Positions 50,299 through 50,356 of a stretch of 64,000 bases of DNA are shown here, piece by piece. The stretch lies in assembly GCF_055900595.2 (NCBI RefSeq), contig NZ_CM148325.1; one strand, given 5' to 3'. Made by a program: the position numbers and the translations under genes. Under the pieces are notes generated by a model, which made no database searches, was not told where the DNA came from, and worked only from the letters and a program-made list of their open reading frames with translations. The first letter of the stretch is position 1. Each line of letters begins with the position of its first letter.

Positions 50299-50356
50299 GC
50301 CCGAGGTAATCTGAAAAAGGTGCAAAAGATTGCACCTTTTTCAGATTACCTCGGGC
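50299..50356. terminator. Long perfect palindrome (26-bp arms, 6-nt spacer) between convergent yjcF and yjcE; probable bidirectional terminator
   Basis: gcccgaggtaatctgaaaaaggtgca-aaagat-tgcacctttttcagattacctcgggc seen directly. Confidence 0.55.

Follow-up and report, generated by a model that had tools for sequence, protein, structure and literature searches.

The convergent genes yjcF and yjcE of Escherichia coli share a 3′-end hairpin with the anatomy of a terminator, and mutation rather than selection for some special function probably accounts for the perfect complementarity of its arms in the lineage described here. The hairpin exists across the species as a series of alleles in which changes that copy one arm onto the other have recurred in both directions. 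Arm identity is the feature common to the derived alleles.

The palindrome and its setting

Within the window, the 64-kb stretch of DNA analysed here, a repeat search located an inverted repeat at 50299-50356 with 100% complementary arms of 27 nt and a loop of 4 nt. The left, yjcF-proximal arm (GCCCGAGGTAATCTGAAAAAGGTGCAA) occupies 50299..50325, the AAGA loop or spacer, which is inverted in no allele, 50326..50329, and the right, yjcE-proximal arm (TTGCACCTTTTTCAGATTACCTCGGGC) 50330..50356; none of these parts is assigned a strand. The preliminary description gave the right coordinates for this element but called it near-perfect with 26-bp arms; it is perfect, and the arms are 27 nt long. The chance expectation for such a repeat in 64 kb is ~4e-11, and a copy of the palindrome arm was present in 0 of 100 shuffles of the sequence. 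A second copy of the arm was not found within the 64-kb window with 3 mismatches allowed. As RNA, the full palindrome folds on either strand with about -49 to -50 kcal/mol (z about -15), and the single-stranded DNA hairpin of the window allele has -33.7 kcal/mol. The next-longest perfect hairpins of the window have arms of 14, 13 and 12 nt against the 27 nt of the palindrome. These short hairpins lie at 3842-3871, 54049-54079 and 27825-27854, respectively. The one at 54049-54079 (AAACTAAAGCGCC…GGCGCTTTAGTTT), flanked by A/T tracts, looks like an ordinary bidirectional terminator and serves as a yardstick for the size of the 27-nt arms.

The palindrome lies between yjcF (also espX5; 48917..50209, + strand), which encodes a pentapeptide-repeat protein of 430 aa, and yjcE (50377..52026, - strand), which encodes a Na+/H+ antiporter of 549 aa. 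Both assignments come from the ORFs and the matching RefSeq annotation, and they bear out the convergent arrangement proposed earlier. A spacer of 89 nt (50210..50298) separates the yjcF stop codon from the palindrome, and one of 20 nt (50357..50376) separates the palindrome from the yjcE stop codon. A yjcF transcript would either stop at the hairpin or run through it. In matching RefSeq genomes, actP lies upstream and ghxP lies past yjcE. The spacer on the yjcF side contains a 14-nt indel (CTCACGGACTTCTG, 50256-50269), which the window lineage and strain 06-00048 carry and K-12-like haplotypes lack. A 45-aa ORF (50293-50430, + strand) that starts just before the palindrome and runs through it, antisense to the 3′ end of yjcE, was judged spurious; no ribosome-binding site was obvious for it.

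In many genomes, PGAP labels yjcF as 'T3SS effector pentapeptide repeat protein EspX5', and the gene is often a pseudogene or broken by IS1, IS3 or IS5. The YjcF protein of the window is only 89% identical to the common cluster. A search with YjcF against 5.8 billion proteins returned E. coli clusters only, and no relative was found in 100,044 species representatives, of which the one for E. coli evidently lacks yjcF.

Distribution of the locus

Among 5426 complete E. coli genomes, 4118 have the palindrome locus, in every case between yjcF and yjcE, and the element was found in E. coli only. Apparent matches at two sites per genome arise from the palindrome matching on both strands and represent one locus, and the proposed check for further genome copies was negative, with a single locus in each genome. 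Genuine plasmids and phages yielded no copy; the matches there were chromosome-sized records wrongly labelled 'plasmid' and short stretches that resemble terminators. The reported lack of REP features is confirmed, as no REP consensus was found, each genome has one locus, and there was no Rfam or repeat match. REP/BIME elements pair a consensus with hundreds of dispersed copies, and MITEs or insertion sequences are multicopy, with terminal inverted repeats plus target-site duplication and similarity to IS ends; the palindrome shows neither combination. Its single locus, the lack of plasmid or phage copies and the restriction of YjcF to E. coli set the palindrome apart from REPs, MITEs and IS relics.

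The window represents a divergent E. coli lineage: over 26.7 kb its identity to K-12 is ~96.3%, divergence around the palindrome locus is ~5%, and only 18 complete genomes share the window flanks at 99% identity or more. Some 1300 E. coli genomes (B2-type) have neither yjcF nor the palindrome. In these genomes, for instance in MS20673 (L003, 885-3000), LrgB-like, CidA/LrgA-like and LysR genes stand between actP and yjcE, replacing yjcF and the palindrome. Homology to the window restarts exactly at 50377, where yjcE has its stop codon, and the spot is taken by another G+C-rich hairpin (GGTTGGCGGGC-TCG-CCCGCCAACC). Another arrangement is seen in PSJ-23 (L004, 2870-3181), where yjcF has been deleted and its last few codons, the spacer and a palindrome of the common type (allele K, below) are kept beside yjcE. 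In isolate L2_E1649 (L062, ~380-400), an IS1 lies in the palindrome centre, between …GGTG and CAAAAGATTGCACC…, and only the loop and right arm are found next to yjcE.

An allele series within one species

The palindrome occurs in several allelic forms. Alleles of genomes that were not fetched were called from BLAST identity classes against 97-nt queries, and the singleton alleles 11PC, EC43 and MB06233 represent one assembly each. Allele K, carried by ~4060 genomes including K-12, has four mismatches and the same right arm as the window. Its left arm (GCCCGAGCTAACCTGTTAAAGGTGCAA) has C, C and TT at the mismatched sites, which correspond to 50306, 50310 and 50314-50315 and all lie on the yjcF side. 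In this allele, 23 of 27 positions are paired, the inner stem is perfect over 10 bp, and the DNA hairpin has -19.7 kcal/mol. Allele I (23 genomes) has TT>AA in the left arm, and allele I′ has TT>AA in the right arm. Allele P is the perfect window type, and allele P′ is a perfect palindrome of mirror type, in which all four right-arm sites are changed. The right-arm partner sites altered in the mirror alleles I′ and P′ are 50340-50341, 50345 and 50349.

Allele I is found on at least four flank haplotypes, with eight I-allele genomes standing outside the haplotype assignment. On three haplotypes, I and K genomes form twins (L007/L011, L009/L012 and L013/L072) whose 3697 bp differ solely by the AA/TT dinucleotide. 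On these identical flanks, K and I genomes number at least 21 versus 3, at least 33 versus 1 and at least 21 versus 9. Since K-allele genomes outnumber I on each twin haplotype, allele I is taken to be derived and recurrent, and the flanking sequences point to at least three independent origins.

The sequences of I′ and P′ were designed from the arm-copying model ahead of the search. Four genomes matched I′ (right arm CCTTTTTCAG > CCTTTAACAG) at 100%, on two haplotypes that are 45 sites apart. One of these genomes (L065) differs from a K-allele genome (L012) only by one distant SNP and the corrected dinucleotide. As L009 carries I and L065 carries I′, both compared with L012, the TT.TT mismatch has been resolved both ways on one background. 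In P′, the right arm is wholly converted to the complement of the K-type left arm. Eight genomes matched this allele at 100%, the three of the eight that were checked share one common K-12-like haplotype, and the allele was also found on an independent short-read metagenome contig.

The window-type perfect palindrome has a second occurrence in EC43, which carries it on a K-12-like flank that lacks the 14-nt insert in the spacer. Comparison of 1.6 kb of EC43 with a K-allele genome shows no differences outside the four sites in the palindrome, and I-allele genomes that share its haplotype are set apart from it solely by the two sites still uncorrected in them (C>G and C>T in the left arm).

An allele with one corrected position was not seen among the E. 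coli genomes searched. Point mutations that degrade the hairpin were found in either arm (L005, L060/L063, L061 and L068), the L060/L063 mutation also in 6 of 80 metagenome contigs. The presence of such ordinary degrading mutations indicates that constraint on the hairpin, if any, is weak. Stem stability ranges from -33 to -50 kcal/mol across alleles. The tracts that would follow the inner stem on the two transcripts also differ: P and I would give U5/U5, K would give U5/U3, and the mirror alleles I′ and P′ would give U3/U3; in the yjcE direction, the K-12 allele has only UUUAAC after the stem. Inversion of the loop or of a segment was rejected as a source of the alleles, as AAGA is never inverted and one arm is altered at a time.

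Template switching as the probable source of arm identity

Changes that are multi-nucleotide, complement the other arm and recur in both directions constitute the signature of quasipalindrome template switching. The features of a template-switch hotspot that sequence can show were found at this locus; dependence on replication, a strand bias and suppression by ExoI/ExoVII are further marks of the class. Allele K supplies an imperfect inverted repeat as substrate. Clustered changes to the exact complement of the other arm are seen in I, in the step from I to P in EC43, and in I′ and P′. Independent recurrence is documented by the three I/K twin pairs, the two haplotypes of I′ and the two unrelated flanks of P, and the use of either arm as donor by the discovery of the predicted mirror alleles. 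The suggestion of a recombination hotspot in the preliminary description comes near the mark without quite hitting it: the allele series points to a mutational hotspot of intra-locus template switching. Template switching of this type is known to make repeats 'perfect or more perfect' (PMC7202029), and evolutionary versions of the model have been described (PMC5941160; PMC8794818; PMC13100816).

In the proposed mechanism, the starting state would be the imperfect quasipalindrome with four mismatches present in most E. coli. During replication, the nascent strand would fold back, copy its own first-made arm and overwrite the second arm, as in the Ripley/Lovett model, with priming from the 10-bp perfect inner stem. 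Short copying tracts would repair only TT.TT, the mismatch nearest the inner stem, and long tracts would repair all four. TT.TT is the mismatch most often corrected, which fits inner-stem priming. If the synteny of K-12 applies, the fork would reach yjcE before yjcF, and the yjcF-side arm would be made second on the leading strand. On this order, alleles I and P would stem from the leading strand, and their mirror counterparts I′ and P′ from the lagging strand. Correction events number ~4-6 in the yjcF-side arm and 3 in the yjcE-side arm, too few for a claim of bias. We infer that such a replication mechanism lies behind the arm copying and that template switching produced the perfect allele of the window lineage, which would then not be ancestral.

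Selection for a better terminator does not serve as the common cause, because P and I have U5 tails but I′ and P′ have U3 tails.

A terminator-like core

The inner part of the palindrome (50314..50341) consists of A5, a 7-bp stem (GGTGCAA/TTGCACC) with four G-C pairs, the AAGA loop and T5. As RNA, this core hairpin has -8.7 kcal/mol, or -13.9 kcal/mol when A/U pairing is counted. With A5 ahead of the core and T5 behind it, the RNA of each strand ends in a hairpin followed by U5; in the window allele, UUUUUCAGAUU stands directly 3′ of the core stem on both strands. Intrinsic terminators have a stem of ~5-14 bp and a loop of 3-8 nt, and the core has 7 bp and 4 nt. A U-rich tract lies 3′ of the stem in both transcripts of the window allele, and the hairpin is placed 3′ of the stop codons of two convergent units, at 89 nt from yjcF and 20 nt from yjcE. 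The inner 28 nt are thus laid out as a bidirectional intrinsic terminator classically is. In each arm, 15 further bp on the outside extend the stem, and a U-run after the full stem is absent on either strand, so the outer part would be dispensable for intrinsic termination at the inner hairpin. A promoter/terminator scan, whose rule demands a T-run after the full stem, left the site unflagged, and it found no promoter-like site near the palindrome.

The core pattern (AAAGGTGCAA-N4-TTGCACCTTT) has matches in 42 unrelated genomes among the 100,044 species representatives searched, including Haemophilus, Actinobacillus, Flavobacteriia and Clostridia; no match was found in Enterobacteriaceae among these representatives. 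Of the 42 matches, 36 are intergenic; for 34 of these 36, an ORF ends no more than 300 nt upstream, and 10 are placed between convergent ORFs. The 42 matches were rejected as homologues and are regarded as convergent terminator-like hairpins. The core is, from its layout, a generic terminator-like design that recurs independently. A similar hairpin in a Mannheimia phage bears the annotation 'terminator'. Rfam assigned no family to the palindrome at gathering score, and the matches obtained at a permissive E-value, to generic long hairpins (miRNA precursors) far under gathering scores, were set aside as meaningless.

Transcription past the hairpin

In K-12 (NC_000913.3), the palindrome occupies 4281650-4281707 as the imperfect allele. 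No curated Term-seq 3′ end falls at 4281500-4281899 in this strain (Adams et al. 2021). The same study placed a Rho-dependent termination region at 4281854 on the + strand (window ~50152) with a Rho score of 6.7, where upstream/downstream coverage is 89/25 without BCM and 98/184 with BCM, and another at 4281402 on the - strand (window ~50605) with a score of 5.4 (Adams et al. 2021). These Rho regions are antisense, inside yjcE and yjcF, just past the palindrome. Their location indicates mutual antisense read-through of yjcE and yjcF when Rho is inhibited; with the K allele, at any rate, transcription continues beyond the hairpin under this condition. The TERMITe supplements have no entry at the palindrome site.

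The element had been suggested to be a strong bidirectional terminator. The anatomy of the core fits a bidirectional terminator, and the word 'strong' finds no support, since K-allele transcripts pass the hairpin under Rho inhibition and the full stem is followed by no outer U-tract. Judged from the sequence, the core may terminate or pause transcription, and a partial terminator, a pause element or a 3′-stabilising hairpin is a plausible role by analogy with REPs and with terminators of the collision type. The window allele, with U5 on both strands, is predicted to end the yjcE transcript better than that of K-12, which has U3 in that direction. RNase III requires at least ~20 bp of uninterrupted double-stranded RNA. 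If read through, either transcript of the window would contain a perfect stem of 27 bp, a predicted substrate for this enzyme. It is also conceivable, and improbable, that the alleles form a heritable, recurrent switch, in which conversions would toggle the U-tracts and stem stability and maybe tune read-through and antisense transcription of yjcE and yjcF/espX5.

Alternative explanations

In the alternative that fares best, the perfect palindrome would be ancestral, the window lineage would have retained it because a long RNA hairpin is selected for, and the K-12 type would be its decayed form. Such a hairpin might serve as a 3′-end stabiliser, as an RNase III site on read-through RNA or as a pause element in collision termination. 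The window lineage is a deep branch, and as the deepest branch, with no outgroup that fixes polarity, it could carry the ancestral state. In addition, 16-18 genomes of this lineage keep the palindrome intact or nearly so, and the 27-bp perfect duplex is long enough for RNase III. Hairpins between convergent genes have been proposed as pause sites for collision termination (bioRxiv 10.1101/2022.10.23.513370), and REP hairpins are combined terminators and stabilisers (bioRxiv 10.64898/2026.03.23.713779). Against this reading, ~4060 genomes tolerate four unpaired positions, further degrading mutations are known, and ~1300 genomes are wholly without the element. P and P′, moreover, are both perfect yet opposite in U-tract quality.

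As to polarity, the four differences in 58 bp are near the neutral expectation at ~5% divergence, and the fact that all of them fall in one arm has weak statistical significance (Fisher p = 0.04). Strain 06-00048 (L068) represents a third deep haplotype that combines the 14-nt insert of the window with a K-type left arm, and it leaves the tree unrooted. The derived changes that can be polarised all run from imperfect to perfect. This direction, together with the origin of P at least once more, in EC43, favours a derived origin, and the balance inclines towards the perfect palindrome of the window lineage being derived. An ancestral palindrome maintained by selection is judged unlikely, if still the foremost competitor of template switching.

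A second alternative is that the rare alleles spread among E. coli lineages by short-patch homologous recombination and were not made anew by template switching. The region is indeed a mosaic, with haplotypes 2-5% apart and yjcF alternating with the lrgAB-like/LysR cassette. The distal part of yjcE in EC43 looks recombinant, and a patch of <116 bp from a window-type donor is possible in this genome. Recombination cannot explain I′ and P′, however, because their right arms match nothing but the left arm of this very locus, read in reverse complement, and no donor allele is at hand. For allele I, it would need patches of less than ~250 bp at one spot on at least three haplotypes without flanking markers, and no copy was found on true plasmids or phages. 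Short-patch transfer is improbable as the general source of the series.

The palindrome had also been proposed as a protein-binding site, for which nothing was found in support. Its dyad symmetry would suit the operator of a dimeric DNA-binding protein, and the centre (TGCAA-N4-TTGCA) bears what we take to be a loose likeness to CytR-type half-sites and a LexA-like resemblance too. There is, however, one copy per genome, which stands between two 3′ ends with no promoter-like site near, and the outer half-sites are freely mismatched in ~98% of locus-bearing genomes. A reported SrsR gSELEX peak falls inside yjcF and has a different motif. An operator is thus very improbable.

Least credible of all are an artefact of assembly and a relic of a mobile element, such as a MITE or the ends of an IS. 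In favour, yjcF lies on a segment that is polymorphic for presence and is bounded at the yjcE stop codon, and one genome has an IS1 inserted at the palindrome centre. Against, no other copy exists in the window, the 5426 E. coli genomes, plasmids, phages or the 100,044 species representatives, target-site duplications are absent, and the alleles are common to many independent assemblies from different laboratories and to a metagenome contig.

Comparison with known systems

Template-switch hotspots were reportedly recognised by Ripley in 1982 and are said to have been studied with the thyA, rpsL and lacZ QP5/QP6 reporters of the Lovett, Maki and Sinden laboratories. Like these laboratory hotspots, the locus between yjcF and yjcE combines an imperfect repeat with recurrent multi-nucleotide changes in either arm, templated by the other arm (PMC7202029). 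Unlike them, it is a natural, intergenic palindrome in wild genomes, and its mechanism, rates and strand bias are deduced. The proposed homogenisation of arms, which would make perfect stems and keep them so, is also shared with maintained perfect repeats and with RNA hairpins to which template switching gave rise (Lavi et al. 2018, PMC5941160; Monttinen and Loytynoja, PMC8794818). Those two studies are statistical surveys, whereas the palindrome is a single locus at which the forms from parent to end states segregate in one species.

Bidirectional intrinsic terminators resemble the palindrome in their short G+C-rich stem-loop with an A-tract and a T-tract, located between two stop codons, and an identical 24-nt core is found at gene ends of unrelated bacteria. 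The palindrome differs in that its stem goes on for 15 perfectly paired bp without a U-tract, and in that termination just downstream in K-12 is Rho-dependent on both strands. REP/BIME elements are likewise extragenic palindromic hairpins between genes, and REPs can be partial, Rho-assisted terminators and mRNA stabilisers (bioRxiv 10.64898/2026.03.23.713779). The palindrome has no REP consensus, however, and is single-copy, much longer and more A+T-rich. In collision-type overlapping bidirectional terminators, reportedly described by Ju et al. in 2019, convergent 3′ ends are said to overlap at a hairpin element independently of Rho. As far as its sequence tells, the palindrome has the hairpin and the convergent arrangement alone in common with this class.

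Other differences between the window and K-12

Two further differences lie elsewhere in the window. At ~25398-25607, ~6.8 kb of K-12 are absent, comprising alsK-alsE-alsC-alsA-alsB-alsR and most of rpiB (K-12 locus L010, 38141-44981), and the junction holds ~200 nt of unrelated A+T-rich sequence. In the gltP-yjcO spacer, a segment of 150 nt (35994-36143) matches three places in K-12 that are offset by 113 nt, which indicates a tandem array in the K-12 spacer. The spacer of the window has a single unit, in which TRF found no array.

Implications

As a kind of object the palindrome is ordinary, a terminator-like hairpin of a convergent gene pair. Yet the imperfect parent, the two half-corrected intermediates and the two alternative perfect products all occur within a single species, and I′ and P′ came to light only through the prediction of the model. 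The locus is an unusually clean and complete natural case of quasipalindrome template switching; the processes are of known kinds and no new system is invoked. It offers a natural test-bed, away from laboratory reporters, in which the rate of template switching, the length of its tracts and its strand bias could be measured. A testable expectation is that the alleles should differ in read-through of yjcE and yjcF. Were the improbable switch real, the palindrome would be a contingency locus run by palindrome homogenisation and not by repeat slippage. The hairpin that these two genes share cautions that unusual perfection of a palindrome need not mean unusual function.
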